From an uncultured bacterium (GTDB lineage: Bacteria; Fidelibacterota; UBA2242), in contig CAZSDW010000001.1 of the NCBI GenBank assembly GCA_964605705.1, forward strand, positions 70,007 to 134,006: a stretch of 64,000 bases of DNA, written 5' to 3'. Below the pieces are notes generated by a model that was given only the letters and a program-made list of their open reading frames with translations, was not told the DNA's origin and did not search any database. A program made the position numbers and the translations under genes. Positions 8,721 to 26,629 of this stretch are shown here, piece by piece. The first letter of the stretch is position 1. Every line of letters begins with the position of its first letter.

Positions 8721-8745
8721 ATAGCTGCCAGATCCGATTATTATA

Positions 8746-9459
8746 ATGTCGGTAAACAGAATAAAAAGAATCTCACAAAATCTTTTAAGGGTCAGTCAAA
8801 ATATCCGTGATGCGGCTCTACGTTCAAATCGCGATCCCGACGAAATAACCCTGGTTGTCGTTACAAAAACCTGGTCATCTGAAATAATTCGTGTTGCCGC
8901 CGATCTTGGTCTCAGTCATTTTGGTGAAAATAGAATTCAGGAAGCTGCCCCTAAAATTGAGCAGATCAGGCAGGATTATGACAATTTAAGCTGGCATATG
9001 ATAGGACACCTGCAGTCCAATAAAGCGCGATCTGCGGTCGAATATTTTGATTTTGTCCAATCCATTGATTCGTTAAAAATTGCCCAGAAAATATCTAATC
9101 ATGCTACCGAATTGCAAAAGAACATTGACGTTTTATTAGAAATAAATATATCTGGTGAAAGCACAAAATTTGGAATCGATCCCGAGGACGTTTTCAAATT
9201 GGCGAAAGAGGTAAAAGGTTTACCATACTTAGATTTAAAGGGGCTGATGACAATCGGTCCAATGACTGATGATATCCGAGAGGTCAGAAAATCGTTTCGC
9301 CGGATGAAAAAAATTTTTGATATACTGAGACAGCAGCATTCCGAGCAAGAAATCAACGTATTATCGATGGGAATGAGCGACGATTACGAAATCGCTATTG
9401 AAGAAGGTTCGACAATGGTACGCTTGGGGCGAGCGATTTTTGGCTCCCGAGAACATTAA
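8746..9459 (+). CDS. yggS: YggS-family pyridoxal-phosphate homeostasis protein (PLPHP)
   Basis: 237 aa. LVVVTKTWSSEII…GENRIQEA…HMIGHLQSNKA is the classic YggS/YBL036c signature. Confidence 0.8.
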   Translation: MSVNRIKRISQNLLRVSQNIRDAALRSNRDPDEITLVVVTKTWSSEIIRVAADLGLSHFGENRIQEAAPKIEQIRQDYDNLSWHMIGHLQSNKARSAVEYFDFVQSIDSLKIAQKISNHATELQKNIDVLLEINISGESTKFGIDPEDVFKLAKEVKGLPYLDLKGLMTIGPMTDDIREVRKSFRRMKKIFDILRQQHSEQEINVLSMGMSDDYEIAIEEGSTMVRLGRAIFGSREH

Positions 9460-9473
9460 ATTGGGCGGTGAAA

Positions 9474-9902
9474 ATGATCCACAAAAAAGATATTTTAGAC
9501 CGAAAATTTAACAAGGCTTTCCGCGGTTATGATCCGGTTGAGGTGAACTACTTTTTAGAAATGGTTGCCGAGGAATTTGAAAAACTGGAGCATAGAATTC
9601 TCGAACTGGAACCAATCGAAAAACAATTTTCAGAAACGAATTTGAAAACCCCAAACGATATTATTGCGGATGCAGAAAGAACGGCAAAGAAGTTAATTGC
9701 CGATGCCGAAAAAATTTCATCAGATGTTCTGGATATGGCAAAGAGACAGAAAGAATCTGAGAAAGAAGAAATAATTCGTCTGACAAATAAAAAAAGCAAA
9801 TTGATTAAAACACTAAAAGATACCATATCTCAGCAGAGACAACTGATTAATTTTCTGGGCAATATTGAGGATACCCAGGAGGATTCTGATACGATAGAAT
9901 AA
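9474..9902 (+). CDS. divIVA: DivIVA-domain cell-division protein
   Basis: KAFRGYDPVEVNYFLEMVAEEFEKLE N-terminal DivIVA motif plus a coiled coil. The ORF track starts at GTG 9468; the ATG at 9474 has a better RBS. Confidence 0.7.
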   Translation: MIHKKDILDRKFNKAFRGYDPVEVNYFLEMVAEEFEKLEHRILELEPIEKQFSETNLKTPNDIIADAERTAKKLIADAEKISSDVLDMAKRQKESEKEEIIRLTNKKSKLIKTLKDTISQQRQLINFLGNIEDTQEDSDTIE

Positions 9903-10602: not shown

Positions 10603-11352
10603 TTACAACTTTTTCTGGCGGCATAGCGAATAATAGGTATCATTTTCCGCATCGTACCACCGCGAGACAATTATAGCGCCCTCTATATTTTCGTCATAGG
10701 ACTGTTGCAATATTTTGGATTCAATAATGTATTTATTATCCCGCTCTATGGCGTGAATCGAATGAGCGTCGATCTTTATATTCTTTCCAAGATCAAACCG
10801 GGCATATTCATCAGCGTCATTCCACGCCCGAACCCAGGATGAATAATTGGATACGATTCCAACACCGTAATTAAAATTTTTGGATTTGGGTAGAGAAGTA
10901 GTCCATTTGGGTTTATTCTCATCCCAACCAGTATCGTCACTTGGGACGCGCGGGGCGCGCTGCAAGGAATTCAAAGAGATAAGAATGAAATACCCATCAT
11001 AAGTAATAGAGGAGTCTATCGTAGCGTATGTTGCCTCTATTCTGTTCAAGATTGACTCGTCATAAGAAAGCTCCAAGGACGGGTCCAGTAACCGCAGGCG
11101 ACCATCGGAATATTCCTCAATTTCGAAAACAAGCCGGGTGCGTTGTTGCTTAACCATGTTGTGCAGCGCTTTCTTTATCGCCGCCTGCCGAGCAATGGAC
11201 TGGTTGATATATTTTCCGGAATAGCCAACCGCGTACATGTTTCCGGCAGGCGCATCCGGTAAGTTTTCGAACCAGCCCGGAATAATAGTCTGAGCGTCTA
11301 AGCTGCCCCATGAAAAGGCAAGAAAGACCAATATTTTTAACCCAATTTTCAT
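10603..11352 (-). CDS. Secreted protein with two LPP20-like repeats (PxW…YGVG…A..A motif twice), signal peptide
   Basis: MKIGLKILVFLAFSWGSLDAQ signal. IIPGWFENLP…MYAVGYSG…ARQAAIKKAL and KPKWTTSL…NYGVGIVSNYSSWVRAW. Confidence 0.5.
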   Translation of the reverse strand: MKIGLKILVFLAFSWGSLDAQTIIPGWFENLPDAPAGNMYAVGYSGKYINQSIARQAAIKKALHNMVKQQRTRLVFEIEEYSDGRLRLLDPSLELSYDESILNRIEATYATIDSSITYDGYFILISLNSLQRAPRVPSDDTGWDENKPKWTTSLPKSKNFNYGVGIVSNYSSWVRAWNDADEYARFDLGKNIKIDAHSIHAIERDNKYIIESKILQQSYDENIEGAIIVSRWYDAENDTYYSLCRQKKL

Positions 11353-11403
11353 AAAGGAAAATAAAGCCCGCTACCCTATTAAAGAATGGCGGGCTTTTTG
11401 GTT

Positions 11404-11955
11404 TTAGTTACCGACAGCTTCGAGCTTTTGAATTTCGCCTTCTAAATCATCGAAACTGAGGTTGGCTTTTGCCTCGTTGTAGAGCGCCTTCTGCTTTTTG
11501 GCTTCATTGACGGTTTCCTGAATCAAACTATTCAGATTGTACTCTGCCAGTGAATAAGCATGATATTGGGAACCTTCGGTTTTCATTTCGCGCTTTACAA
11601 TTTGAACACCACGCAGAACCGTGTTTGCCACCTGTTTACTTACCGATGAGGTAAATTCCAGCGCTTCGGCGTCATCACCCATGCCGCTCTGCTGCATGAA
11701 GTTCTTCAGCATGTTTGATACTTTAACTTCCAGTGTTCGGGCAATCGCGTCGCGGGCGCGGGCGTCGGCAGATTCTTTTGCCAGGCTCATGCTCTGTTTG
11801 GCGGCGTCACCAGCTTCATAAAAGGCATCCTCTGCTTTCGGTGGATTCAGATACCATTCGGGAATGTCATTCATTTTCGCCTTTGGTTTTCCGCCACAGT
11901 TGACAAGCATTAGTGCCAGTGGAATCATTAATGCGATAATAATCAGTTTTTTCAT
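11404..11955 (-). CDS. LPP20-family lipoprotein
   Basis: Lipobox LMLVNCGG. IPEWYLNPP…FYEAGDA…ARARDAIARTLEVKV resembles the Helicobacter Lpp20 / FlgP-type domain. 183 aa. Confidence 0.6.
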   Translation of the reverse strand: MKKLIIIALMIPLALMLVNCGGKPKAKMNDIPEWYLNPPKAEDAFYEAGDAAKQSMSLAKESADARARDAIARTLEVKVSNMLKNFMQQSGMGDDAEALEFTSSVSKQVANTVLRGVQIVKREMKTEGSQYHAYSLAEYNLNSLIQETVNEAKKQKALYNEAKANLSFDDLEGEIQKLEAVGN

Positions 11956-11989
11956 GGTTGTCTCCTTTCGCGTTTAATTTAATTGGATT

Positions 11990-13348
11990 TTATGGTTGAA
12001 TTGCTGTCTGCAAAAACGCAGCAAATTTTGATTTTGTAACACTGATATTTTCACATGCTTTCTGAACGGCATTTTCACGTGAACCCAATGCCATCCCGTT
12101 TCCTTTTGCCACGACGGAAGCAAGCTGTGTATTGGCGTTGGTGTCATTCAGCGACAGGGGCAATTCCAATTCAATAAAATATTGTCTTCCGGCAGGAGAA
12201 TCGATGATTCTTTCGCTTTTTAGTATCGCTGTTCCCTGAATCTTTAGATTGGATGTCGGATCATTTCGATATCCATTATTGTTTACCCAGCCGCCGACAA
12301 GCGCCCCCATGTTTTTGTTCGTGTTATCATTTATATCTTTAATCTCAATGGAAAATGACAGATCCGCTGTTACGATAGAGTAATTTACCGTTGCCTGAAT
12401 CTTTGAAAGGTCATTTCGGAAAATATCCGGTAGGTTGCTAAGACCGAGCGTAAAGTTGACAGCTCCGGAGCCAGTTGCGCCACCGGTCGGGGTTGCAATA
12501 ATATTTACAGAAAGCGTACCCTTATCGGATGATCCGAGCTTGTTGATAGTTTCGCCGTTGGCGTATTTTACGATAACCGGATACCATTTGAGCCCGATAT
12601 CATTACCGAAACTATCTTTATAAAAAACCCTTGCAACCACCGGTTCCTTAAGCGGAACTCCCAGCGAAGAAGTTTGATTATTGCCGCTGATGATTTTTAC
12701 ATCAATTGCCGCCAGGATCGTTCGAATTTCCGACAGAATACTTGCCACCGATGCGGTATTTTGATCGCCATAAACAGTTCCGGTGAGTGCGGTATAAAGT
12801 CCGCGCTTGATATAGAAATCGGGAACGATTTTTTGAGCAGATATATAATTGTCGAGCGCGTTGAACAAATTACCTTTCTGGACGAGATCCCGGGCGCTTT
12901 GCAGATACTGGTTTGACTCGGCGATTATTTTATCCATTTCCTGCTGCAATCCAGCCAGGTAATTCTGTTTATTTAATACCGCCAGGACGTAATGCTTACC
13001 CTTAATGTTTTCGGATTCAACGATCTCGATTCCGGCGACAGTTTCCGATACAATGGACTTGGTTTTTGAGGTAACCTCGGAGTGAATGGTGCTGCGATCG
13101 CCAGAACCGATCTCCTGTTCCATGGTTTCCAGTTCGGATTCAATTTTGACCTGAATCTGTTTTGCCACATCAGCGCGCGCCAGCTCAACCGCTTTGGTTT
13201 TATCTTCGGCGATCCCAACACCGAGCAGATAATCCGAATTGGGATATTTTTTATGACTATTACTTTGTGCCCATTTGGGAATTTGAGCGAGAACAAAACC
13301 GCTGATTATAAGTAAGACGCAGAAAATATATGGGGCTTTTTTAAACAC
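11990..13348 (-). CDS. Secreted protein, N-terminal LPP20-like domain + uncharacterised beta-rich C-terminal region
   Basis: Signal peptide. QIPKWAQS…YLLGVGIAEDKTKAVELARADVAKQIQVKI motif. 452 aa. Confidence 0.45.
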   Translation of the reverse strand: MFKKAPYIFCVLLIISGFVLAQIPKWAQSNSHKKYPNSDYLLGVGIAEDKTKAVELARADVAKQIQVKIESELETMEQEIGSGDRSTIHSEVTSKTKSIVSETVAGIEIVESENIKGKHYVLAVLNKQNYLAGLQQEMDKIIAESNQYLQSARDLVQKGNLFNALDNYISAQKIVPDFYIKRGLYTALTGTVYGDQNTASVASILSEIRTILAAIDVKIISGNNQTSSLGVPLKEPVVARVFYKDSFGNDIGLKWYPVIVKYANGETINKLGSSDKGTLSVNIIATPTGGATGSGAVNFTLGLSNLPDIFRNDLSKIQATVNYSIVTADLSFSIEIKDINDNTNKNMGALVGGWVNNNGYRNDPTSNLKIQGTAILKSERIIDSPAGRQYFIELELPLSLNDTNANTQLASVVAKGNGMALGSRENAVQKACENISVTKSKFAAFLQTAIQP

Positions 13349-13357
13349 GGGTCCTCC

Positions 13358-14623
13358 CTATTCTTCTTCAACGGAGAGTAGTAGTAGTTTGCGAGAGATC
13401 GAAACGCGCTTGACGACGCCACTGCCCGGATAGGATTTTTTGATGGCGCGGTAAATATCACTGGCCGCCGCAAATTCGGCTGGATTTACCCAGATAGATA
13501 CATCATATGTATAATCGGCAACCACGTGTTCTTTTACTAGGCAGGGCAGCGCTTTCAGGGCATCTCCCATAGAAAAAATGATTGCTTCGGCTTGTTCGGC
13601 ATCGAAGGAATTGTCAACACTGAGAATAATTTTATATTGAATCCCCTGTTTTGTATCCGATTTCCAGTAATTTGTAATTCGGCTGATTACCTTGTCAACG
13701 GCGTCGTTCATTGCCTCTTCTATTAATACGGCGTTTGCTCCAATCCGTTCCTGGCTGTACCCGGTATCGGTTCCCAACAATCTTCCGGTTGTTGTCTCAT
13801 AGGCTCGGCAACCAACCACCGCTTTTTTGACGGTGGAGCTGCCCAGCGTGCGGGATTCAATGGTGACATTATAAGAAACGTAAACATCGCTTCCAATTGA
13901 AAGTGCCAATAAATAACTATAGTCATCGCCGGTGCCGCTGAGCGCGTATTGAGTTGCGCTGAGTTCCTGGAGGACTTGCTGTTGTTCGGGGACAATAACC
14001 GAATATTTTTTCGCTGTCAGATATGACTCAATGACTTCCGCGGCTTTTTTAATGTCAGCATTCTGCCGAAGCAGATCGAGCGGTGCAATATCACCGCTAG
14101 ATTCCGGTATCACCATTATAGTCGGCATACCAACCGATAGAGAAATTTTTGCGGCGGCAGTAATCACCGATTTTTTGACCAGATATTCTTCCAGCAGGGT
14201 CTTGTTAATTTTGAAAGTTTTTTCAATTTTCAGAGTTTTTCCGCCGTCGGTTTTCAGGCGCTTATCATAATAATCTGCCTCCCATGCTATGAACTGCCGG
14301 ATATTTTCGATTGTGTAAAAATCATTTTCCATTTTCTGAAAGGCGATTTTCTCTTCATCGGTTTGAATTAGGGGATCGCTGCCACCGAGCAGAACATACC
14401 AGACAGCTGTCTTCGCAGCATCTTCATTGGCGCTTTTATCAAGAACGCTGGCATTGGGCTTGCGGTGTTTTTCATCAATTCCCATTCCGGTGGCTCGTAT
14501 CAGCAGCTCTGACGGCGAACTACTTTCAATCAGGGTTGCTTCACGAGCCCGTGGAAGATTGGACGCAAGCACAACAGCTGAGAATAAAAACATAAGGACA
14601 AGAATGTATTTCAACGGTTTCAT
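13358..14623 (-). CDS. Secreted hypothetical protein (weakly LPP20-like N-terminus)
   Basis: Signal peptide MKPLKYILVLMFLFSAVVLA. 9-nt gap to downstream gene. 4-nt overlap with upstream gene, indicating an operon. Confidence 0.4.
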   Translation of the reverse strand: MKPLKYILVLMFLFSAVVLASNLPRAREATLIESSSPSELLIRATGMGIDEKHRKPNASVLDKSANEDAAKTAVWYVLLGGSDPLIQTDEEKIAFQKMENDFYTIENIRQFIAWEADYYDKRLKTDGGKTLKIEKTFKINKTLLEEYLVKKSVITAAAKISLSVGMPTIMVIPESSGDIAPLDLLRQNADIKKAAEVIESYLTAKKYSVIVPEQQQVLQELSATQYALSGTGDDYSYLLALSIGSDVYVSYNVTIESRTLGSSTVKKAVVGCRAYETTTGRLLGTDTGYSQERIGANAVLIEEAMNDAVDKVISRITNYWKSDTKQGIQYKIILSVDNSFDAEQAEAIIFSMGDALKALPCLVKEHVVADYTYDVSIWVNPAEFAAASDIYRAIKKSYPGSGVVKRVSISRKLLLLSVEEE

Positions 14624-16383
14624 TTGGGGACCTCTATGTTTTTCATCTGGTTCTGAACAATCGCCACGGGATTAAACGGCAGAGATGGCGGCGAAAAATG
14701 AATATAAATTCCAATTGTTGGACTGTAACTGTAAAACTTGGGTGCAACCCAGCCGGTTTCATTTTCAATATCGATTTCGTCGTCATCATATTTTACAGTC
14801 CAGATATCGAGGGGTGGAAACGCCTGAACCCCCGCGAAAACACCGACGTTCCAGTCGATATTTACGGCGTATTCAAGCCCAACATCCAGCTTGACACCAA
14901 AGGTGTAATTTGAAATTGTGACCTTTTCACCATTGTAATAATCATTCCCGCGATTTTTTGAAATATATGTAATTTGTGTTCCAAGCGATGCTTCGCCATG
15001 AATTGCAAAGGGACCGAGATAGTACCGTTTGAGATATCCAATATATCCATAATAAAGACCGGCGACCCAATTTTGGGTTGGTATAAGATCGCGCCAATGC
15101 CAATTTTCATCCCAATAAGCAAAATCAAAGATGGTACTTTTCACCGGCACGGCACTCGCGGTACCACCAAAGACCAGGAAGCTTTGGCGCTTTTTTGTCA
15201 GGTTTGCAATGTTCCACTGGAAGTTCATGTCAAGTCCGAGGGAACCTCCTTCGTAATTATCAAAATAAACAACAAAACCCTCGTCGGAGTTCATCATAAA
15301 TCCTTCTTCGACATTGATGTTAAACCAGCGCGGTCTGAAAGCAATATCGATTCCTAATCTGGGGTGTTCAATGACCATCATTCCTCGTGACCAATCGCCT
15401 TTTTTGATGGCGACAGCCTGCGATAGTTGTCCACCGGAATTGAGATTATCTGAGACTGTGCTTACGCGCACAAAACCGGATTTTTCAAACCGGATTTTGC
15501 CATGAACGTTTTCTGTCCATTCACCGACGAAAAACGGATCGTCCAGCCGTATCCCCTCCGCATTACCCAGTGGAAAACCAATTCTTCGGCGTTGAATTTC
15601 AGCAATCGGTGCGCTCAATTTGAACATGTCCAGCTCGCGGGTCTTGATCTCAAGGTTCATCGCCAGTGTATTAGCAGCGCCCCAGAAAGCATATTCTTTC
15701 GGGGAGGCTTTTTGTCCATCAATCTGATAATTTTCCTCGGTGTCGGCACTGGAATAGGCGTCGGACGTCAATTTTGTAATTTTTTCAACGATCGGTTCAT
15801 CTCCCGGTATAATATGGTACCAGAGCAGACCACCCGAAAGATTGACGGTGATTTCTTTACTGTCCTTTTCTTTCTTCGCGCTGAGGTTGCTGATAAATGG
15901 GATATACAGAAACGAGGAATTCATCACCTGTTCAAGCTGCTCGGCTGTGATGCCGGCGTCTTTTGCTTTAAGGGCGATAAAAGAATTTTTCTGTGTTTCG
16001 GTAACCAATTGCTGGGCACGCATTTCCTTTTGAATATCAAGGATCTTGATGATTTCCGGGACAATCGTTGAATTGATCAGTGATGTCAATTCGTCGTCGG
16101 AAATATTCCCGCTTTTCGCCAGGCGATTGGTGAAAGATGATTGGATCCGATCGGGCAGCGGATTATAGTCGAAGCGGGCGATTTGAATGCCCTGATTAAT
16201 AGCGCCGGTGTATAATTGCTGTTCTCTTGGGCTAGTTTTAAAATCACCGGTTGCCAGGAGGGCGGTTGTGTAAGAGATGGATTTGCGCGTGTATCCCTGA
16301 GTGCTTTGGGCGTGTCCGCTGATTGCGAAGAAACAGACCGGAAAAGCAATCAGTGCGAGATAGGATGTCTGCTTATACTTCAT
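14620..16383 (-). CDS. Secreted protein with beta-strand-rich C-terminal half (putative outer-membrane beta-barrel); first gene of the minus-strand LPP20 operon
   Basis: Start chosen at MKYKQTSYLALIAFPVCFFAISGHAQ, which gives a signal peptide and has an AAAGGTGA RBS. The ORF-track start at 16464 lacks a signal peptide. C-terminus has an alternating hydrophobic pattern. Confidence 0.45.
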   Translation of the reverse strand: MKYKQTSYLALIAFPVCFFAISGHAQSTQGYTRKSISYTTALLATGDFKTSPREQQLYTGAINQGIQIARFDYNPLPDRIQSSFTNRLAKSGNISDDELTSLINSTIVPEIIKILDIQKEMRAQQLVTETQKNSFIALKAKDAGITAEQLEQVMNSSFLYIPFISNLSAKKEKDSKEITVNLSGGLLWYHIIPGDEPIVEKITKLTSDAYSSADTEENYQIDGQKASPKEYAFWGAANTLAMNLEIKTRELDMFKLSAPIAEIQRRRIGFPLGNAEGIRLDDPFFVGEWTENVHGKIRFEKSGFVRVSTVSDNLNSGGQLSQAVAIKKGDWSRGMMVIEHPRLGIDIAFRPRWFNINVEEGFMMNSDEGFVVYFDNYEGGSLGLDMNFQWNIANLTKKRQSFLVFGGTASAVPVKSTIFDFAYWDENWHWRDLIPTQNWVAGLYYGYIGYLKRYYLGPFAIHGEASLGTQITYISKNRGNDYYNGEKVTISNYTFGVKLDVGLEYAVNIDWNVGVFAGVQAFPPLDIWTVKYDDDEIDIENETGWVAPKFYSYSPTIGIYIHFSPPSLPFNPVAIVQNQMKNIEVPK

Positions 16384-16500
16384 ATCACCTTTTGTACAAT
16401 TTTTCCTATATCCGTTATCGGTTATGTGTAGTCCAAATTTCGATATGCAGGTTTTAGATGTCAACCCTTTTCTTTTTGATGTCTCGACTGAATATAAATA

Positions 16501-16529
16501 TTGACATTATGTGATTTGGCGCATAATAT
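16501..16529 (+). promoter_or_regulatory. Sigma70-type promoter TTGACA-N17-TAATAT for the LTD-repeat gene; the inverted TGTCAA at 16460-16465 may be the divergent -35 for the minus operon
   Basis: TTGACA at 16501-16506, 17-nt spacer, TAATAT at 16524-16529. AGGT RBS at 16546-16549. Confidence 0.4.
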
Positions 16530-16554
16530 TCTATGGAAATATTATAGGTTTATA

Positions 16555-19500
16555 TTGTTGAAGTTTCTTAATCCCGACAAGCTCCTTCCTTTTTTCATTT
16601 TATTCGTCGCCAACGGTGTTATGTTCGCCCAATCCGTCACTATAAATGAGGTTATGTTTGATGCCATTGGAATTGATGATTATGATGAGTTTATCGAGAT
16701 AGTCAATATCGGAGATGCATCAATAGACCTGCAAGGTTTTTATCTGGAGATAAATGGTTATGTCGATTCGATTGATTTTAAAGATGATAGCACAAGCCTG
16801 GAATCCGGCGCCTATGCTTTGATCTTTGACCAGGGCTATCAACAATCAGGCACCTATGAGGGTCTCATACCCGCAACAGCATTGCGTTGTACAATTCATG
16901 ATAACTATTTTGGGACAAGTGGTTTGAAGAATTCTGTCCCCAATATAGTCCTGCTTTTAAATTCTGATGGTGATACGCTATCGGCTGCTACAACGAGTCC
17001 CGACCAGGACGCGGGTTATTCAGATGAAAAGATCGATGTTTTTGGCGATAACGATCAAACAAACTGGGGAAATGCAATTTCTTTATATGGTACACCGGGA
17101 TATGAAAACAGTATCGCAATGAAAGATTCTGACCTGGCAATTACCGATTTTCGAAGGCTCAATGAGGATATTTTCCCAATCCCCGGAACACCGGTTGAAT
17201 TTATATTAAAGATTCAAAACCTGGGGCGAAACATCATTGAAAACGCCGATGTCGTTTTTGGCATTGATCAGAACCAGGACTCAATGCTTCATTATAGCGA
17301 AATCCTATATAATGATATCTTGACAATCAGCCCGCTGGATTCGGTTGTGTTGTACCCGACCCTTCCGATGATTAGATCAGGCAGCCACGAAATAATGTCG
17401 GCAATTCTTTTAGAAGATGAAATGCCGGAAAATAATGATTTACGATATACTTTGTGGGTGCCGTATGAAAAGGGCGCGGTTCTAATCAATGAGTTTATGT
17501 ATGCACCAAAATCTGACCATGGCGGCGAATGGATCGAACTTCTGAATATTTCACCAGATACAATAGACCTTGCCCACTGGAAAATTTGTGATGAGGCATC
17601 AGGAATCGCCGGAGCCGTAATTACTTCGTCCAGAAGCCTGGTTGCCCCGAATTCGTTGGTTGTTTTGTCGTCGGACGCGACCTTGGAAAATTTCTGGGAA
17701 ATAGAGGACGTGCACATCGTTTGTGAAAAAAAACTCCCGTCGCTGAATGATACTGGAGATTCGATTATTGTACGGGACTTATGTGGAGTAGCAATAGATT
17801 CTTTAAAGTATTCGAGCGCTTGGGGCAAGCAGACGGGCGTGGCGTTGGAGCGAATTGACCCCCATGGGGACAGCAATCTTTCTGATAACTGGGCGCTTTC
17901 GGCTGACACTTCCGGCGGAACTCCGGGACGACAAAATAGCTGTAAGGTAAAAAGTTATGATATTTCTCTTGATGAACTGGAAATTTTGTCGGAAAACATT
18001 TTCAATGGCGATTACTTTGAAACATCTTTTAGATTAATGAATAAAGGCATTGAAAATGTAAGCACCTATTCTATCCGCTTCCGGATAGAAAATCAGGATT
18101 CGATAGAAAACAGCCCGGCAGTTTTGGATTCTGTGGTTAATTATTCCATAACTCTAATGCCGGGAGAATTTTCTATAAGGACGGTTGATTTTCATTCTGT
18201 CTCCGGTGGGGCTTATACCCTGTTTGCAACGGTTGTATTTGAGGAAGATGAAAACCTACAAAATAACAGTGATAGTTGTGATCTCGTAATTGGATACCCC
18301 GTCCACTCAATTATTATAAATGAAGTTATGAACATACCCGAGACAGGTGAATCCGAGTGGTTTGAGATATATAATCCGGTGGATTTCCCGGTTGACCTGA
18401 ATCGATGGCGGTTTCGGGACGCGAATGGGACTTGGAAGTATCTGATAACACAACCGAAAATTTTGGAACCCAATGATTTTTGTATCATTGCCGCCAGCCG
18501 GGATTTTCTACAGGCGTATCCGGCATTTGATGGTCCTATGATAATACCACAGAAATTTCCAATTTTGAATAACAGCTCCGATTCCCTGTTTTTAGTCGAT
18601 GCAACCGGGCACTCGATTGAAACGGTGTATTTTCGACAGGACTGGGGCGGGGGAACCGGCATTAGTATTGAGCGCAGAGATCCCAATGCTCCAGCACAGA
18701 CGGAGAATAACTGGGGCAGCTCGACAGATCCGGCGGGTGCAACTCCGGGAGCAATAAATTCCATTCTGAAATATCAGCGCGACCTTTCGATTATTCCCAC
18801 CAGCTTCAGGTTTGTCGATTCAACAGTGTCGTTAATTCGTCCGGTAAAGTTTATGATTGAGGTCAAAAATAATGGCAGCATCAAATCCGGAAAATTTTCG
18901 CTGGAAATATACTATGATCGTGATCGAAGCGAAAGCGTTACTCCGGATGAAATTGTCTGGAGCCTGCACAGTATTCCGGCACTTTTACCCGATTCTGTCA
19001 TTTTTCTTGATGGCGAATTCTATTCGGAGACATCGGGTCGATGTAGATATATCGCCATGGTGGCGATGACTGAAGATGAGAATATTTTTGATAATACCGC
19101 GTGCCGGGATTTACTGGTTGCGTATCCGAAAGGCTCGTTACTTTTCAATGAATTTCTGGCATATCCCAGGGCGGAACAGACGGAATTTTGTGAAATTGTC
19201 AATGTCAGCAGCGGAAATATCAATTTCGGCGAATGGCGATTTTCCAATAGCCGCAGCACAGCAATGATTTTACAAACTCGCGATTTGAATATTTCCCCGG
19301 GAGAATATATTGTTTTGGCAAAAGACAGCAGTTTTTTCGAGAAATTTCCCACGGTGACGGGCAAAACAATCATACCGGAAAAATGTCCCGGATTAAATAA
19401 TTCTATCGACAAAATTATTCTTAAAGATTTGACCGGTACGGTAATAGATTCTCTGGCTTTTGATGACAGCTGGAATGTAATGTCCGGAGTATCTCTCGAG

Positions 19501-20745
19501 AAAAAGCTGCCGGTTTACCAGAGCCATAATGTTTTTAACTGGTTTTTATCGACCGACCCGACTGGTGCAACACCGGGACGTAAAAACTCAGTAATGCCGC
19601 TCGCATATGATATTCAGCTGGATTCAGTGGTGGTATTTCCCGAAACCGGATCGTCCGCCACGGAATTTCAAGCCCGATGCTGGTTTACGAATGTCGGATT
19701 AAATAAAAGTTCACCCGCAGAACTGGCGATTATTCAAAAAAGTCTAAGCGGGTCCCAAACAATCAAATCTGTAGCAATAAAGTCTTTGGAAGTTGGTGAA
19801 AGCGATTCTATTCTAATTAATTTTGGCAAATTCAATTCTGGTTATTACCACCTGGCGCTTGTCGCTCTTTGGGAATATGATTCAAATAGAATGAATGACA
19901 CTCTTAATTTTTCAATTAGAGTTGCTTTTGAAAAAGGAGCCCTGCTCTTATCTGAGTTTATGGCGAGTCCATTGATCGTTAAAACAACGGGAGGTTCTAT
20001 CGCGGAGTATATCGAGATATACAATCCCAACGACGAAACATTACTGGAAGCCTGGTCGATCTGCGATGAAAACACCGGCGCTCCGGTGAAGATATTCACA
20101 GAGAAAGCCGTCGGTCAGGGCGGGTTTTTCGTGATTGCAAACGATTCCACAATATTTCAATATGATCAGGTTTTACCCGAAAATACAATTGTATTACCAC
20201 ACTTTCCTTCGTTGGGCAATACTGAGGACGGCATCTATTTAATCGGTCCCGCGGGCACCATTGTTGATAGTTTGAAATATGATTCCGGCTGGTCGATAAC
20301 GCAGAATAAATCAATGGAAAGGGTATATTATACGAATCCCAACCTGATGAATAATTGGCGACTGTCAACCGCGGCGGCGGGAGGAACGCCGGGATATAAG
20401 AACAGCGTTGCCATTACAGATGAATCTGTGAAACCCGGTATAAAAGTAACGCCCAATCCATTTTCGCCGAATGGTGATGGAATTGATGAACAGGTGGCAA
20501 TCCAGTTCCTTTTGCCCTTTCCCAGTGCAAATGTCAATATGCAGATTTACGATATGATGGGACGATTGATTTTTGAGCCAGCCAAAAACCTTCCGTCATC
20601 TTCCGAAGGAGCAGTCTATTGGGACGGATCGAGTATTCATGGCAACCGCGCCCGGATCGGGATGTATGTGGTACGTTGTTCGGCAACCGATGCGACAAGT
20701 GATAAAACTGTTGGCTATATCACAACCGTTGTTCTGGCACGATGA
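16555..20745 (+). CDS. Giant secreted surface protein: 5x (lamin-tail-domain + CARDB/Ig-like) modules and a C-terminal FlgD-Ig-like / T9SS type-A-like sorting domain
   Basis: TTG start gives the signal peptide MLKFLNPDKLLPFFILFVANGVMFAQ. Five INEVM/INEFM…EWIELYN…W LTD signatures, each ending GGTPG(R/Y)xNS. C-terminus TPNPFSPNGDGIDE…IYDMMGRLIF…VYWDG…GMYVV. Confidence 0.7.
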   Translation: MLKFLNPDKLLPFFILFVANGVMFAQSVTINEVMFDAIGIDDYDEFIEIVNIGDASIDLQGFYLEINGYVDSIDFKDDSTSLESGAYALIFDQGYQQSGTYEGLIPATALRCTIHDNYFGTSGLKNSVPNIVLLLNSDGDTLSAATTSPDQDAGYSDEKIDVFGDNDQTNWGNAISLYGTPGYENSIAMKDSDLAITDFRRLNEDIFPIPGTPVEFILKIQNLGRNIIENADVVFGIDQNQDSMLHYSEILYNDILTISPLDSVVLYPTLPMIRSGSHEIMSAILLEDEMPENNDLRYTLWVPYEKGAVLINEFMYAPKSDHGGEWIELLNISPDTIDLAHWKICDEASGIAGAVITSSRSLVAPNSLVVLSSDATLENFWEIEDVHIVCEKKLPSLNDTGDSIIVRDLCGVAIDSLKYSSAWGKQTGVALERIDPHGDSNLSDNWALSADTSGGTPGRQNSCKVKSYDISLDELEILSENIFNGDYFETSFRLMNKGIENVSTYSIRFRIENQDSIENSPAVLDSVVNYSITLMPGEFSIRTVDFHSVSGGAYTLFATVVFEEDENLQNNSDSCDLVIGYPVHSIIINEVMNIPETGESEWFEIYNPVDFPVDLNRWRFRDANGTWKYLITQPKILEPNDFCIIAASRDFLQAYPAFDGPMIIPQKFPILNNSSDSLFLVDATGHSIETVYFRQDWGGGTGISIERRDPNAPAQTENNWGSSTDPAGATPGAINSILKYQRDLSIIPTSFRFVDSTVSLIRPVKFMIEVKNNGSIKSGKFSLEIYYDRDRSESVTPDEIVWSLHSIPALLPDSVIFLDGEFYSETSGRCRYIAMVAMTEDENIFDNTACRDLLVAYPKGSLLFNEFLAYPRAEQTEFCEIVNVSSGNINFGEWRFSNSRSTAMILQTRDLNISPGEYIVLAKDSSFFEKFPTVTGKTIIPEKCPGLNNSIDKIILKDLTGTVIDSLAFDDSWNVMSGVSLEKKLPVYQSHNVFNWFLSTDPTGATPGRKNSVMPLAYDIQLDSVVVFPETGSSATEFQARCWFTNVGLNKSSPAELAIIQKSLSGSQTIKSVAIKSLEVGESDSILINFGKFNSGYYHLALVALWEYDSNRMNDTLNFSIRVAFEKGALLLSEFMASPLIVKTTGGSIAEYIEIYNPNDETLLEAWSICDENTGAPVKIFTEKAVGQGGFFVIANDSTIFQYDQVLPENTIVLPHFPSLGNTEDGIYLIGPAGTIVDSLKYDSGWSITQNKSMERVYYTNPNLMNNWRLSTAAAGGTPGYKNSVAITDESVKPGIKVTPNPFSPNGDGIDEQVAIQFLLPFPSANVNMQIYDMMGRLIFEPAKNLPSSSEGAVYWDGSSIHGNRARIGMYVVRCSATDATSDKTVGYITTVVLAR
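16636..20410 (+). repeat. Five diverged intragenic tandem repeats (~820 bp period) encoding the LTD+CARDB modules
   Basis: Recurring ggNggaac(t/g)ccggga… (GGTPG) at ~17090, 17921, 18733, 19565 and 20380. Protein-level periodicity ~275 aa. Confidence 0.6.
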
Positions 20746-20839
20746 ATATGCTAAAATGACTTGATTTTATTATTCTGCATGTGTAACATATTCGAAATGT
20801 TGTAATCTTAAAGAAAAACATCTTTTAAGGGAGGATAAA

Positions 20840-21961
20840 ATGACAAAGAAATTTACGGTTTTTGGGATCATTCTGCTGATTGCTTTCAATGGATTTTCGC
20901 AGGATATGTCGGAATTTTCGATGGATCAGGTTAAGCAATTGGTTGAATCCAACGGAAAAAGCTATTTGCAACCACTGGTTACGGGCTACGGTTCAGCCAT
21001 GAACGCGGGTCTGTATAATACCGCCAAAACCCACAAAATACTGGGATTTGACATCGGGCTAAAAATGGGATTTGGAATTGTGCCCACCGGTGAGAAATCG
21101 ACATACGATTTCGATCTTACGGCACTGGATAATATACCTGTTACAGTTGGGGATTATACTCTTGATTTAAATCCATCTGAGCTATTTTCAAATACAGAAA
21201 CGCCTACGATTTTAGGTGGCGCGGCAGAGCCATTTGAGGTTGATGAGACTTATATTACGGGTCTTGTATATAGTCAGGCGAGAGAAAACATAGTAACAAC
21301 ATTTCCTGGTCAAACAGATGAGTGGTATGATAACCAGGCACAAACAGCGGTTGACGCTTTAAGCAGTGATATTTCCGATGCCGCAGATGAAGTGGCAATT
21401 TCTTCAATTCCAGGTATTAAATCTATTTCAGGGCTTGAGGACATGGAAAATTTAATTTTCCCATTTCCGATTTTACAGGCAAGCGTAGGACTTCCAATGG
21501 GTATTGAGCCTTCCATTCGGATGATCCCGGCAATCTCTATTCCCGGCGATGTTGGTGATGCGCTTGGTGAAATATCTTCGTTTGGTGTTGGTCTGAAAGT
21601 TGACGTTGATCAGTTTATTCCCATTCCACTGTTTCCGGTTGATATTGCCGCCCAGGCATTCTATCAGAATTTTTCGATTGGGGATATTCTTTCTGCCAAT
21701 AATATGAATTTCAACGTTCACGTCAGTAAAAAGCTTCTGATGCTTACCCCCTATATTGGAATGGGCGTTGACAATACGACCTTTACCGCCAGCTATGAAA
21801 TGGGCGATGGTGTGAAACAGGATTTTACCATTAAGGGTGATAATAAATTAAGAACCACTTTCGGACTGAATATTAAACTGCTTATTTTGCAGGTCAATGC
21901 CGAATATTCCATGGGTGAATATAACTCTGCTGCCGTGGGACTTGCATTTACACTGCGCTAA
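20840..21961 (+). CDS. Secreted beta-rich protein, putative outer-membrane protein co-transcribed with the LTD protein
   Basis: Signal peptide MTKKFTVFGIILLIAFNGFSQD. 95-nt gap after the LTD gene. Followed by a strong terminator. Confidence 0.45.
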   Translation: MTKKFTVFGIILLIAFNGFSQDMSEFSMDQVKQLVESNGKSYLQPLVTGYGSAMNAGLYNTAKTHKILGFDIGLKMGFGIVPTGEKSTYDFDLTALDNIPVTVGDYTLDLNPSELFSNTETPTILGGAAEPFEVDETYITGLVYSQARENIVTTFPGQTDEWYDNQAQTAVDALSSDISDAADEVAISSIPGIKSISGLEDMENLIFPFPILQASVGLPMGIEPSIRMIPAISIPGDVGDALGEISSFGVGLKVDVDQFIPIPLFPVDIAAQAFYQNFSIGDILSANNMNFNVHVSKKLLMLTPYIGMGVDNTTFTASYEMGDGVKQDFTIKGDNKLRTTFGLNIKLLILQVNAEYSMGEYNSAAVGLAFTLR

Positions 21962-21982
21962 AATATTTTTAAAATCGCTTTA

Positions 21983-22008
21983 AAAGGGGGCATTCGCCCC
22001 CTTTTTCA
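21983..22008 (+). terminator. Rho-independent terminator (GGGGGCattcGCCCCCTTTTT)
   Basis: Perfect GC stem 21986-21991 / 21996-22001 followed by a T-tract. Confidence 0.8.
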
Positions 22009-24448: not shown

Positions 24449-24835
24449 ATGGAATTTTCAAGGAATATCTATTTCTTCTTATATCGTAACCGGCGATTTA
24501 TAATTACCTGGTTGATTATTATTTTCGCGATAATCATGGGGCTTTATCTGGGAGTTGATAAAGAGGCGATTGCCGTTGGCGTGGTTATTTTTGGAATACT
24601 TGCCAATGCCTTCGCAGGACTTGCCGGGCTGATTGCCATGGTTCCCTTTGTTGGACCGATCCTTATAAAAATCCTGTCGTTGCCGATTTTCTGGCTGCTT
24701 AATGCCATGGGATACTATGTGTCTGTCATTGCAATAAAAAGGGGCTACGGGCGCGACGTAGTCAGCTACCGGATGATTACAGTGATTTTTCTGGTCGGTT
24801 TTGCGGTCGGTTTTATAATTGCCAAATTAATTTGA
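24449..24835 (+). CDS. Small integral membrane protein (3-4 TM), unknown function
   Basis: Hydrophobic segments. No recognisable motif. Confidence 0.4.
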   Translation: MEFSRNIYFFLYRNRRFIITWLIIIFAIIMGLYLGVDKEAIAVGVVIFGILANAFAGLAGLIAMVPFVGPILIKILSLPIFWLLNAMGYYVSVIAIKRGYGRDVVSYRMITVIFLVGFAVGFIIAKLI

Positions 24836-26629
24836 TGATACAAGAACATCTGCTGTAATTATTTTATCACCTTTTTTAATTTTCAAAACAACATCCATTC
24901 CTTCAATTACTTCACCGAATCGCGAATAATTATAATCAAGGTGATATTGAGGGGAAGTCGTGATAAAAAATTGTGATCCCTCAGTATCCGGACCGGCATT
25001 TGCCATCCCAACCGATCCCGTGTCATATCCCAGCGGTGATTTTTCGGTTAAAAGATGATAACCGGGTCCACTCCAGCCATCGCCTCGCGGATCACCACCC
25101 TGAACAACAAAATTTGGAATTACCCGGTGAAATATCAAACCATTGTAAAATCCAGAATCCACCCGATTCAGAAAAGCATCGACAGTGAAAGGGGTAAAAT
25201 ATCCGTCACAGCGAATACTAAACGCCCCGCGATTTGTCATTATTCGGACAACCGGCTTGAGACCGTATTGTCTGATTTTTGAAAGATTGGAATATAAATA
25301 CGGATCATCGACATCAGTTGGTTTGGGAATATTCAGAGAATATGTTTCGGTCAAAATTCGGTATGCTTCGTCGCGCAACAGCTTCTGGTGGGATTTTAAA
25401 AGTGGATACAATTGAGTTGGTGCATCGGGCGGTGTCAATTTTTCTATTGCCCGAAGCACCATTGCGGTCGATTCCTGAAAACGGAACTCACGATTGTTGT
25501 CCAGGCATGAGTAGAGATGTGTTTTTAAAACGGATCCTTTTTGGGGAGATTCGAAAATGTGGTCAGCCGCTATATATATTTGCACGGGATCATGACTATT
25601 TAATCCATGAATAAGTACATTGATGTACTCGTTATCAGTAATCGTATTTGAAGAAATCAGGGAATCAAGCATTGATACTAATCCGATATATGCCGCCGAT
25701 GACACTGTCGGCAAACGATGATTAGACAGAAAAAGTAATTCTGAGAAGCTGTCTCTGCTTATCTGTGCAGATAATCCGGTCGCTTTAAAAGGCAATAGGA
25801 GATCGTCAATTGTAAGTGAATCACGCAGATCATTGAGAATTGAGTCCGGGCGTGAAAAAACTATCTGGACCATTGTGCTTCGCACCGAGACAGACCCGGA
25901 ATTGAACAGCGAATCCAGCAGAGCAATAGTCTGCTCATTAAATTGCATAATCTGAGGCGTGTTTTGTAATGCCGCCGCAACCACGTGGGGATTGACATCA
26001 CGTAGCGCATCGAGCCAGAGCGCATTACTTTCCGGTAAAGATTCCAGAATCAGGGCTGCTTCATAGCGAACGCGCCACTCGGTATCATTCATCAGCTGCC
26101 GATAGAGATCATCTTTTTCCGGGAAATCCACCTGCCGTAAAATTCTGGCTATTGATTGACGCACAAAAGGATCGGGATTACCAGCAAAATGTAGAAGCTT
26201 GTCAATATAAGGGACTAAGTTTTCATGAGATGGAATACGTTGCAATGCGATTGCAGCCATTTGGCGAGCAGTAGAATTTTTTGAGTCAAGGAAACCGATA
26301 CAGTCTTTTACCAGCTTATCGGAAACCACTCCTCTCGAGAAAAAATAAATATAGGAGTGAATCAGAGTTATGTCTAAAGATGTCGATTGAAAATGATCGT
26401 ATAGAAATAATGCTGTCTTCAAATCTCCGATTTTTCCGAGCGACAAAATCATTTGGCATTGAACTTCTTTATCATGTTCAACAAGCACCTGCCCGGAGAG
26501 AATTCCAATGGCGGAAGAACTTTGCAGCTGTCCCAGGGCAAATGCAGCGCCCTGCCGGACCAGCGGAGAAGGGTCATTTAAATAGCTTTTTAATTGTGGG
26601 ACTAGAGTAGTGTCCCGGCTATTTGCCAC
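24827..26629 (-). CDS. HEAT/PBS-lyase-repeat protein fused to a C-terminal cyclophilin-type peptidyl-prolyl isomerase
   Basis: C-terminus FHRVIPNFVVQGGDP…GYHLL…GSQFFIT is cyclophilin. N-terminal PSPLVRQGAAFALGQL-type HEAT repeats. Confidence 0.7.
   Translation of the reverse strand: MANSRDTTLVPQLKSYLNDPSPLVRQGAAFALGQLQSSSAIGILSGQVLVEHDKEVQCQMILSLGKIGDLKTALFLYDHFQSTSLDITLIHSYIYFFSRGVVSDKLVKDCIGFLDSKNSTARQMAAIALQRIPSHENLVPYIDKLLHFAGNPDPFVRQSIARILRQVDFPEKDDLYRQLMNDTEWRVRYEAALILESLPESNALWLDALRDVNPHVVAAALQNTPQIMQFNEQTIALLDSLFNSGSVSVRSTMVQIVFSRPDSILNDLRDSLTIDDLLLPFKATGLSAQISRDSFSELLFLSNHRLPTVSSAAYIGLVSMLDSLISSNTITDNEYINVLIHGLNSHDPVQIYIAADHIFESPQKGSVLKTHLYSCLDNNREFRFQESTAMVLRAIEKLTPPDAPTQLYPLLKSHQKLLRDEAYRILTETYSLNIPKPTDVDDPYLYSNLSKIRQYGLKPVVRIMTNRGAFSIRCDGYFTPFTVDAFLNRVDSGFYNGLIFHRVIPNFVVQGGDPRGDGWSGPGYHLLTEKSPLGYDTGSVGMANAGPDTEGSQFFITTSPQYHLDYNYSRFGEVIEGMDVVLKIKKGDKIITADVLVSSN

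Follow-up and report, generated by a model that had tools for sequence, protein, structure and literature searches.

Type B cargo proteins of the type IX secretion machinery (T9SS), exemplified by SprB from Flavobacterium johnsoniae and PG1035 from Porphyromonas gingivalis, are together with their PorP/SprF barrels (SprF and PorP, respectively) among the closest described systems to the locus presented here, a pair of genes from an uncultured bacterium of the Marinimicrobia (Fidelibacterota). The pair lies within a 64-kb stretch of DNA (the window, meaning the whole of the DNA analysed), and encodes a protein with five lamin tail domains (LTDs), followed by a protein of the family DUF6588. As in the type B systems (PMC9143113), a large repetitive protein, predicted to be exposed at the surface and holding a CHU_C tail, has the gene of a predicted outer-membrane (OM) β-barrel next to it on the same strand. 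However, clear differences exist. The barrel of the window is a DUF6588 protein without PorP/SprF similarity, has its own promoter and usually does not lie beside a cargo gene; DUF6588 is apparently single-copy, whereas the type B systems hold one paralogue per cargo; and the tail of the window protein misses the TIGR04131 cut-off, in a host that does not belong to the Bacteroidota. Type A cargo proteins, whose C-terminal domains (CTDs) are described by TIGR04183/PF18962 and are found as the tails of RgpB, PorZ, and PorU, resemble the window protein in having a seven-strand β-sandwich as the last domain with the same set of motifs, but differ from it in the profile matches and in a short insert, both detailed below.

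On the other hand, the LTDs of the window protein have a counterpart in ExeM from Shewanella oneidensis (LTD, OB-fold, and EEP nuclease; PMC6085458), likewise a secreted bacterial LTD protein. Whereas ExeM combines one LTD with catalytic domains, the window protein holds five LTDs and no catalytic domain according to a Pfam scan. Deletion of the LTD of ExeM left the degradation of extracellular DNA in vivo unaffected and reduced the activity in vitro (PMC6085458). These are the only functional data on LTDs that were found, and the statement of an earlier note on this DNA, that bacterial LTD proteins are functionally uncharacterised, is thus too broad. Mans et al. 2004 (cited in PMC6085458) had long before pointed out LTDs repeated in tandem in secreted proteins of bacteria, and bacterial LTDs have been associated with extracellular nucleases and hydrolases (PMC6085458, PMC8289736).

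The LTD gene probably encodes a secreted cell-surface fibre or adhesin of the Marinimicrobia, and the DUF6588 gene is best read as an autonomous OM β-barrel gene rather than as the cargo-specific operon partner that the earlier note had suggested. For both genes, the homologues carry the labels Candidatus Marinimicrobia, Neomarinimicrobiota, or Fidelibacterota. The features of the locus and of the operon beside it are collected in Table 1.

Table 1. Features of the LTD–DUF6588 locus and of the divergent operon beside it (positions in the window; aa, amino acid residues; nt, nucleotides).
Feature	Position	Strand	Remarks
Coding sequence, lamin-tail-domain protein	16555..20745	+	1396 aa; TTG start 16555, stop codon 20743-20745; ORF list, Pfam, homologues
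Putative type I signal peptide	16555..16629	+	aa 1-25, MLKFLNPDKLLPFFILFVANGVMFA, with QS behind the cut; read from the translation
Module 1: LTD1 and CARDB-like Ig	16633..17442	+	aa 27-296; self-profile search and module alignment
Module 2: LTD2 and CARDB-like Ig	17443..18273	+	aa 297-573; LTD envelope 297-428, 178 bits
Module 3: LTD3 and CARDB-like Ig	18274..19098	+	aa 574-848; LTD envelope 574-702, 209 bits
Module 4: LTD4 and CARDB-like Ig	19099..19905	+	aa 849-1117; LTD envelope 849-978, 184 bits
LTD5, no CARDB-like domain behind	19906..20412	+	aa 1118-1286; LTD envelope 1118-1251, 156 bits
C-terminal β-sandwich (CTD)	20413..20742	+	aa 1287-1396; PNPFSPNGDGIDE ... IYDMMGRLIF ... VYWDG ... 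GMYVV ... TTVVLAR
Coding sequence, DUF6588 protein	20840..21961	+	373 aa; signal peptide, long N-terminal helix, predicted OM β-barrel with helical insert; Pfam, AlphaFold2
σ70-type promoter of the LTD gene	16501..16529	+	-35 TTGACA 16501-16506, 17 nt, -10 TAATAT 16524-16529; 10/12 consensus match
Own promoter of the DUF6588 gene, in the 94-nt spacer	20761..20789	+	-35 TTGATT 20761-20766, 17 nt, -10 TAACAT 20784-20789
Shine-Dalgarno GGAGG of the DUF6588 gene	20830..20834	+	5 nt before ATG; AGGAGG/GGAGG in the same place in relatives
Intrinsic terminator behind the DUF6588 gene	21982..22005	+	AAAAGGGGGC-ATTC-GCCCCCTTTT, then T; -17.3 kcal/mol, z = -3.5
614-aa signal-peptide protein	14620-16464	-	β-rich C-terminal half; no Pfam/NCBIfam match
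DUF6175 protein	13358-14623	-	
LPP20-domain lipoprotein	11990-13348	-	
LPP20-domain lipoprotein	11404-11955	-	
LPP20-domain lipoprotein	10603-11352	-	

The longest open reading frame (ORF) over the first gene runs from 16501 to 20745 on the forward strand (1414 aa), with the TTG at 16555 in frame. The 1396-aa product of this start is present in a public protein collection (P0104), and the TTG at 16558 is an alternative, equally good start when the protein is aligned with relatives that begin at ATG. Homologues reach E = 0. The N-terminus, judged by eye, has the basic n-region, the hydrophobic core, and the small residues at -1/-3 of a signal peptide, and the mature protein is predicted to begin with Gln. 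In both proteins of the pair, the predicted sites put Gln first, with the cut between VMFA and QS in the LTD protein (16555-16635) and between NGFS and QD in the DUF6588 protein (20840-20905); relatives show FAQ at this place. This pattern resembles the Q-rule of the Bacteroidetes, which has been described as not general for the Fibrobacteres–Chlorobi–Bacteroidetes (FCB) group (PMC5837995).

Five stretches of the protein match Pfam LTD (PF00932), with 192.3 bits against a gathering score of 34.3, and a self-profile search places their starts at residues 20, 297, 574, 849, and 1118, which corresponds to a period of approximately 275 residues. The modules are 25–35% identical to one another. Pfam CARDB (PF07705) scores 27.4 bits over the whole protein against a gathering score of 22.7, with no single stretch being significant and the best one covering positions 7-52 of the 101 of the profile; both this stretch and the best LTD stretch belong to module 3. 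The four segments between the LTDs align mutually as β-rich, CARDB-like units of about 110 residues, and in the same alignment the CTD sits behind LTD5, where the immunoglobulin (Ig) domain would be. The architecture is therefore a signal peptide, four LTD–Ig pairs, a fifth LTD, and the CTD. The earlier note had described five modules of some 275 residues, each with an LTD and a CARDB/Ig-like domain; the five LTDs and their period stand, whereas the CARDB-like Ig domain is found in four modules only, the CTD replacing the fifth.

The LTD gene is a further member of a widespread, annotated, and experimentally unstudied family, for which 262 homologues were retrieved at E <= 1e-10. Their sources are Marinimicrobia, Ignavibacteriota (among them Ignavibacterium album, Rosettibacter firmus, and Melioribacteraceae), and metagenome-assembled genomes (MAGs) of Bacteroidetes, and NCBI already names them "lamin tail domain-containing protein", which gives the family a name, not a function. 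Among the homologues listed, the number of LTDs ranges from four to nine (mode six) at the same period, compared with the five of the window protein. The members, for example those from I. album and R. firmus, have the same architecture of signal peptide, repeated modules of LTD plus CARDB-like domain, and conserved tail, and the family is 28–52% identical to the window protein over about 90% of its length. The conserved tail reads PNPFSPD(N/G)DG ... GRL ... RIGIY ... VV.AR and ends in ARK(L). Most homologues carry precomputed PF13585 and/or PF13860 matches at the C-terminus, PF13585 being found in most of the orthologues and PF13860 in many.

The tail of the window protein is its last domain and ends at the final residue, which, along with the N-terminal signal peptide, is the layout of a Sec-exported CTD protein. 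It passes CHU_C (PF13585, type B) with 34.6 bits against a gathering score of 27 (residues 1318-1408 of the 1414-aa ORF, profile positions 4-85 of 86), and it aligns with the TIGR04183-positive CTDs of other Marinimicrobia proteins. In this joint alignment, the LTD tails and the type A tails have in common the PNPF, IYDxxGR, and GxY motifs and a basic-hydrophobic terminal strand of the form K/T-x-V-V-L-x-R/K, the main difference being a 7-residue SPNGDGxDD insert after PNPF in the LTD tails, typical of CHU_C/FlgD_ig domains. An LTD orthologue of a second Marinimicrobia clade (L011) gives a borderline TIGR04183 score of 23.2 bits. The AlphaFold2 (AF2) model of the last 130 residues is a seven-strand sandwich (mean predicted local distance difference test, pLDDT, 79), and its top Foldseek match in the Protein Data Bank (PDB) is PorZ, a CTD-bearing T9SS protein (E = 3e-5), with the CTD of NucA bound to the translocon (8glk_D) and PorU also listed. 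In addition, domains of this kind form the C-terminus of many otherwise unrelated secreted proteins in the Marinimicrobia and other FCB loci that were fetched, including a C25 peptidase, M6 and HExxH metalloproteases, and a 374-aa protein, among others, and these proteins pass TIGR04183. The tail is therefore assigned to the T9SS-CTD/FlgD_ig superfamily, and by its position it behaves like a sorting module; its sequence appears intermediate between the type A and type B CTDs. The FlgD-Ig-like sorting domain of the earlier note scores as more than a generic Ig domain. Of the profiles that the note had named, LTD and, over the whole protein only, CARDB score above their gathering thresholds, whereas TIGR04131 stays below its cut-off and TIGR04183 gives no match.

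Regarding transcription, each of the two genes appears to have its own promoter. The TTGACA-N17-TAATAT promoter that had been read upstream of the LTD gene is present, and TTGAC(A/T)-N17-(C/T)ATAA(A/T)AT is kept in six relatives (L002, L004, L006, L053, L054, and L055) despite their diverged flanks, which is stronger evidence than the consensus match alone. The DUF6588 ORF begins 94 nt behind the LTD gene (95 in the earlier note, which was otherwise right in placing a β-rich protein with a signal peptide there), and the spacer holds a motif, cTTGATTTT-N17-TAACAT/TAATGT/TAAAGT, that is conserved in all 11 relatives compared. With 8 of 12 consensus positions, this motif lies below the threshold of the consensus scan, and it is its conservation that identifies it as a promoter. 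DUF6588 genes in quite different loci, next to SpoU, have a similar promoter upstream, TTGAAC-N17-TATATT. Because the spacer motif is conserved and has such a counterpart in other contexts, the DUF6588 gene is considered to have a promoter of its own. No hairpin or terminator was found in the 94-nt spacer, and transcription may continue from the LTD gene without this being required; the description of the genes as co-transcribed is weakened accordingly. The strong terminator reported behind the second gene is confirmed by its folding energy, and hairpins of differing sequence followed by T-runs occupy the same position in 10 of 11 relatives. A consensus terminator scan missed this terminator, likely because an A/T-extended stem consumes the T-run, and direct folding confirmed it.

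The 373-aa protein encoded by the second gene, for which a distinct family had been suggested, belongs to one already described, Pfam DUF6588 (PF20230), with 180.5 bits against a gathering score of 27 (residues 3-371 on profile positions 3-318 of 319), and all of its 103 homologues carry the same domain. No paper mentioning DUF6588 was found. In the AF2 model (pLDDT 81), the signal peptide is followed by a long helix (residues 28-55), a long strand, a three-helix insert (136-185), and ten long strands that end in GLAFTLR. The protein is thus predicted by the model to be an OM β-barrel, as the earlier note had supposed. The lack of a PorP motif, which the note had also pointed out, extends to whole profiles: neither PorP/SprF (PF11751) nor PorV/PorQ (NF033709) matches the protein or its 24 relatives scanned with it, PorP/SprF giving nothing at E <= 1, and the only other Pfam family found in this set is one weak OMP_b-brl match. 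Foldseek returned generic barrels only from the PDB, with low TM-scores of 0.15–0.33, and no specific fold similarity to PorP/SprF or PorV. Small and medium OM β-barrels with helices, such as the autotransporter β-domains of NalP, EstA, and EspP, as well as FapF, OmpT, and OpcA, show no sequence similarity to DUF6588 (5–14% identity), and, unlike autotransporters, the DUF6588 protein has no passenger domain; the other barrels compared include the autotransporter β-domains of BrkA, Hbp, and AIDA.

The genomic contexts of DUF6588 are those of a gene that leads a life of its own. In most Marinimicrobia loci it is flanked by SpoU and CBS genes or by lon and glyS, and in Bacteroidota (Ekhidna) it adjoins fur; no LTD gene was found within 10 kb in any of these three contexts. 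Where a MAG has two DUF6588 loci, both share one context, and the gene therefore looks single-copy. A second recurrent neighbourhood is formed by lon, with or without rsgA, which directly precedes DUF6588 in several unrelated lineages (L012, L019, L044, L049, and L135, and also L048), with a spacer of about 30–50 nt and no obvious promoter in the Marinimicrobia cases. In view of such contexts, DUF6588 could well be, at somewhat less than an even chance, an ordinary porin or structural OM protein unconnected to CTD proteins, whose adjacencies to their genes are due to chance or to inherited gene order: its neighbours in most loci are housekeeping genes (SpoU, CBS, Lon, GlyRS, BipA, RsgA, and Fur), and its promoter and terminator are its own. 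What speaks against this explanation is the frequency with which DUF6588 meets CTD cargo genes. When the DUF6588 loci were sorted by hand into 15 context classes, a CTD-cargo gene was the immediate neighbour in five of them, the cargo belonging to four unrelated families and the loci to Marinimicrobia, KSB1, and Cloacimonetes. The LTD–CTD cargo is in tandem with DUF6588 in the clade of the window (class A) and convergent to it in a second clade (class B: L011, L017, L021, and L075); an M6 metalloprotease with a type A tail is divergent from it in class C (L016, L039, and L024, the L024 locus ending before the C-terminus of the gene product, of which only the M6 domain is visible); and a HExxH metalloprotease with a type A tail (class D: L009, a KSB1 MAG) and a NosD/β-helix protein with FlgD_ig/Por_Secre_tail (class Q: L136, a Cloacimonetes MAG) are in tandem with it. 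In a sixth class (L137), a CHU_C protein is encoded two genes upstream of DUF6588 on the same strand.

CTD genes amount to about 2–3% of the other genes in the same loci, and therefore about 5–6% would be expected per class. The binomial tail is about 0.001–0.02 depending on the assumptions (from an earlier tally of 16 classes, before L024 was merged into class C), and, worked out by hand for 15 classes, it is about 0.0014, rising to 0.008 when classes A and B are taken as one. Because the classes are few and defined by hand, which counts against giving these figures more weight, the excess is a lead and not a result. Since CTD cargo adjoins DUF6588 at a rate above expectation across FCB lineages, a general function of DUF6588 that involves CTD proteins at the OM may tentatively be considered, as a possibility that falls well short of even. 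It is more doubtful that DUF6588 is an unrecognised OM component of CTD-dependent, type IX-like secretion or anchoring in Marinimicrobia, KSB1, and Cloacimonadota, acting like PorP/SprF in receiving or holding CTD proteins, although this would explain why DUF6588 adjoins LTD, M6-protease, HExxH-protease, and β-helix cargo in different lineages. Two further neighbourhoods were observed in these loci. In one MAG (L014), a 378-aa protein with a signal peptide is encoded directly upstream of DUF6588 (8729-9865, +); its likeness to PorV/PorQ (23.9 bits over 28 residues; TraF_2, 24.8 against 25) is too weak to be used. In the KSB1 MAG (L009, 11144-14928, +), DUF6588 is followed by three genes whose N-termini, read by eye, are like those of GldA/GldF/GldG-type ABC transporters.

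A narrower role, in which the LTD and DUF6588 genes form a two-gene cargo–partner unit and DUF6588, an analogue but not a homologue of PorP/SprF, receives this CTD protein and anchors it on the OM in the way that SprB relies on SprF and PG1035 on PorP, is unlikely. Such a unit would agree with the tandem arrangement of the genes in all members of the window clade, with spacers of 47–97 nt and no terminator between them; with locus L053, where the upstream genes differ and LTD–DUF6588–djlA is retained; with the second clade, where LTD orthologues are convergent to DUF6588 and no other neighbours are in common; with the adjacency of DUF6588 to other CTD cargo genes; and with the CHU_C match of the tail and the predicted barrel of DUF6588, type B cargo being known to bind adjacent PorP-like barrels (PMC9143113). 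However, the window clade is syntenic over the LPP20 genes, DUF6175, the 614-aa protein, LTD, DUF6588, djlA, birA, and coaX, and synteny within the clade says little by itself about partnership; the DUF6588–djlA adjacency is equally conserved, and therefore plain synteny explains the pattern of the clade. The conserved promoter of the DUF6588 gene also argues against such a unit, as do the single DUF6588 genes of most Marinimicrobia, which have no LTD gene within 10 kb. Seen from the LTD side, of 80 metagenome loci found by the LTD tail, only those of four close relatives and L075 have DUF6588 in the vicinity, and among the 75 metagenome LTD–CTD loci where the LTD gene was called, DUF6588 lies downstream in close relatives only, the other downstream neighbours of LTD genes (in the 80 metagenome loci and in Ignavibacteria) being heterogeneous. 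No barrel gene was found beside the LTD gene of Rosettibacter, and that of I. album is followed by the gene of an unrelated 367-aa protein. Finally, the cargo that adjoins DUF6588 elsewhere has type A tails, which leaves no type B specificity. Because DUF6588 mostly occurs without an LTD gene, and LTD genes elsewhere have heterogeneous neighbours, a dedicated LTD-specific partner is an unlikely role for it, and this part of the earlier note is not upheld.

The 367-aa protein of I. album (metagenome contig L052, 11808-12911, +) is encoded 127 nt behind the LTD gene, has a CIDCH sequence of the CxxCH haem type near its N-terminus, and ends in a barrel-like aromatic C-terminus (FVLQFHFWY). It was considered as a distant DUF6588 and rejected (hhalign probability 1.3%, no Pfam match).

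The reading of the LTD protein as T9SS cargo has to be weighed against several observations on the tail and the host. The tail scores 17.3 on TIGR04131 (type B), against a cut-off of 35 and over half of the profile, and the protein has no match to the type A models TIGR04183 (cut-off 23 bits) and PF18962 at E <= 0.01; all NCBIfam matches of the tail, that is, the PorZ tail, the PorU tail, and TIGR04131, are below threshold. Among sequences in the PDB, FlgD (3c12, E = 2e-4) comes ahead of the CTD of PorU (E = 0.019), so that the best solved relative of the tail is FlgD and not a T9SS cargo; FlgD_ig (PF13860) is its second-best Pfam match, with 20.9 bits against a gathering score of 27; and, in the Foldseek search, streptococcal Fn3-like domains reach scores as good as those of T9SS CTDs. 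As for the machinery, no T9SS core gene (sprA/sov, porV, porU, gldK/L/M/N) was found within the window, where about 50 ORFs were scanned with Pfam, and the unannotated and tetratricopeptide repeat (TPR) proteins with NCBIfam as well; nor does the window hold a PorP/SprF gene of the kind that usually adjoins type B cargo. No paper reporting T9SS core genes in Marinimicrobia was found, and the several non-Bacteroidota FCB phyla in which a T9SS "may also be present" do not include the Marinimicrobia (PMC11285876). The tail might be a structural FlgD/Fn3-like Ig domain rather than a secretion signal, in a phylum lacking a T9SS and on a protein that stays in the periplasm or leaves it otherwise; this is improbable, since such domains invariably come last, on many secreted proteins of these lineages that are otherwise unrelated, a pattern that marks a sorting module, and since the related tails pass TIGR04183, the window tail passes CHU_C, has the terminal K/T-x-hydrophobic-hydrophobic-x-R/K strand of type A CTDs, and finds PorZ as its top structural match.

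Many Por-CTD proteins have been reported in SAR406 bins (PMC5596340), BLAST hints of a T9SS exist for Chlorobi, Fibrobacteres, and Ignavibacteriae (PMC5837995), and the description of Fidelibacter is silent on secretion. Candidates for T9SS core proteins in the window were rejected, as they showed only generic TPR similarity to PorW/SprE (24.9 against 250 bits) and to PorE, and so was a candidate for PorU in the Marinimicrobia locus L049, a 1297-aa protein with Peptidase_C25 and Por_Secre_tail that fails the PorU model and is a C25 cargo, not a sortase. The window also encodes a 600-aa fusion of HEAT repeats and a cyclophilin-type peptidyl-prolyl isomerase (24827-26629, -), conserved in relatives. 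The T9SS translocon of F. johnsoniae contains a peptidyl-prolyl isomerase subunit, and nothing here links the HEAT–cyclophilin protein to a T9SS.

If the LTD gene is indeed that of a surface fibre or adhesin, it would be transcribed from its conserved σ70-type promoter, and the protein would leave the cytoplasm through Sec, with signal peptidase I cutting behind Ala25 and exposing Gln as in the Q-rule. In the periplasm, it would fold into some ten β-sandwich domains, namely the five LTDs, the four CARDB-like Ig domains, and the tail, giving a rod-like molecule that may be tens of nanometres long. The last 110 residues or so would then be the CTD recognised by a type IX translocon, as their family and structural similarity suggest, and the tail may be either cleaved, with lipid linkage as for type A cargo, or kept on a barrel such as DUF6588, much as in the type B route. 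Outside the cell, the association of LTDs with hydrolases and nucleases suggests that the LTD/Ig array most likely serves as a binding or spacer structure for polymers or particles. The DUF6588 gene, with its own conserved promoter and terminator, would sit by happenstance between the LTD gene and djlA in the lineage of the window.

Upstream of the LTD gene, a divergent conserved operon (10603-16464, -) encodes the 614-aa protein, the DUF6175 protein, and the three LPP20-domain lipoproteins of Table 1, with about 90 nt between its start codon and the LTD start. It is syntenic in L002, L004, and L006, and may encode an uncharacterised envelope complex. The window begins with dnaN-recF-gyrB-gyrA, and its first 4 kb or so (SurA-like peptidyl-prolyl isomerase, dnaN, and recF) have a GC content of 21–35%, compared with about 43% elsewhere in the window. 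The step lies at approximately 4.0–4.4 kb, immediately ahead of a gyrB ORF in which the ATPase domain begins at residue 9; the low-GC start could stem from a chimeric join in the assembly or represent an origin region of unusually high AT content. Searches of the window for tRNA genes and Rfam families gave no match.

The gain from this locus is, on the one hand, a cleaner annotation: a further member of the LTD family, DUF6588 as a predicted OM barrel, and a corrected transcription layout with two separate promoters. On the other hand, a cargo-specific partner role of DUF6588 is not supported, and its place is taken by a modest comparative hint that connects DUF6588 with CTD cargo. The annotation of the LTD family itself is not new, and the data show no new mechanism. 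Oxygen-poor oceans and sediments hold abundant Marinimicrobia, whose cell surface is almost unstudied. If the proposed reading is true, the LTD gene would encode one of the major surface fibres of these bacteria, made of ten β-sandwich domains and expressed from a strong conserved promoter, and its tail would be a clear T9SS-type sorting domain outside the Bacteroidota, in a phylum for which no such machinery has been described.

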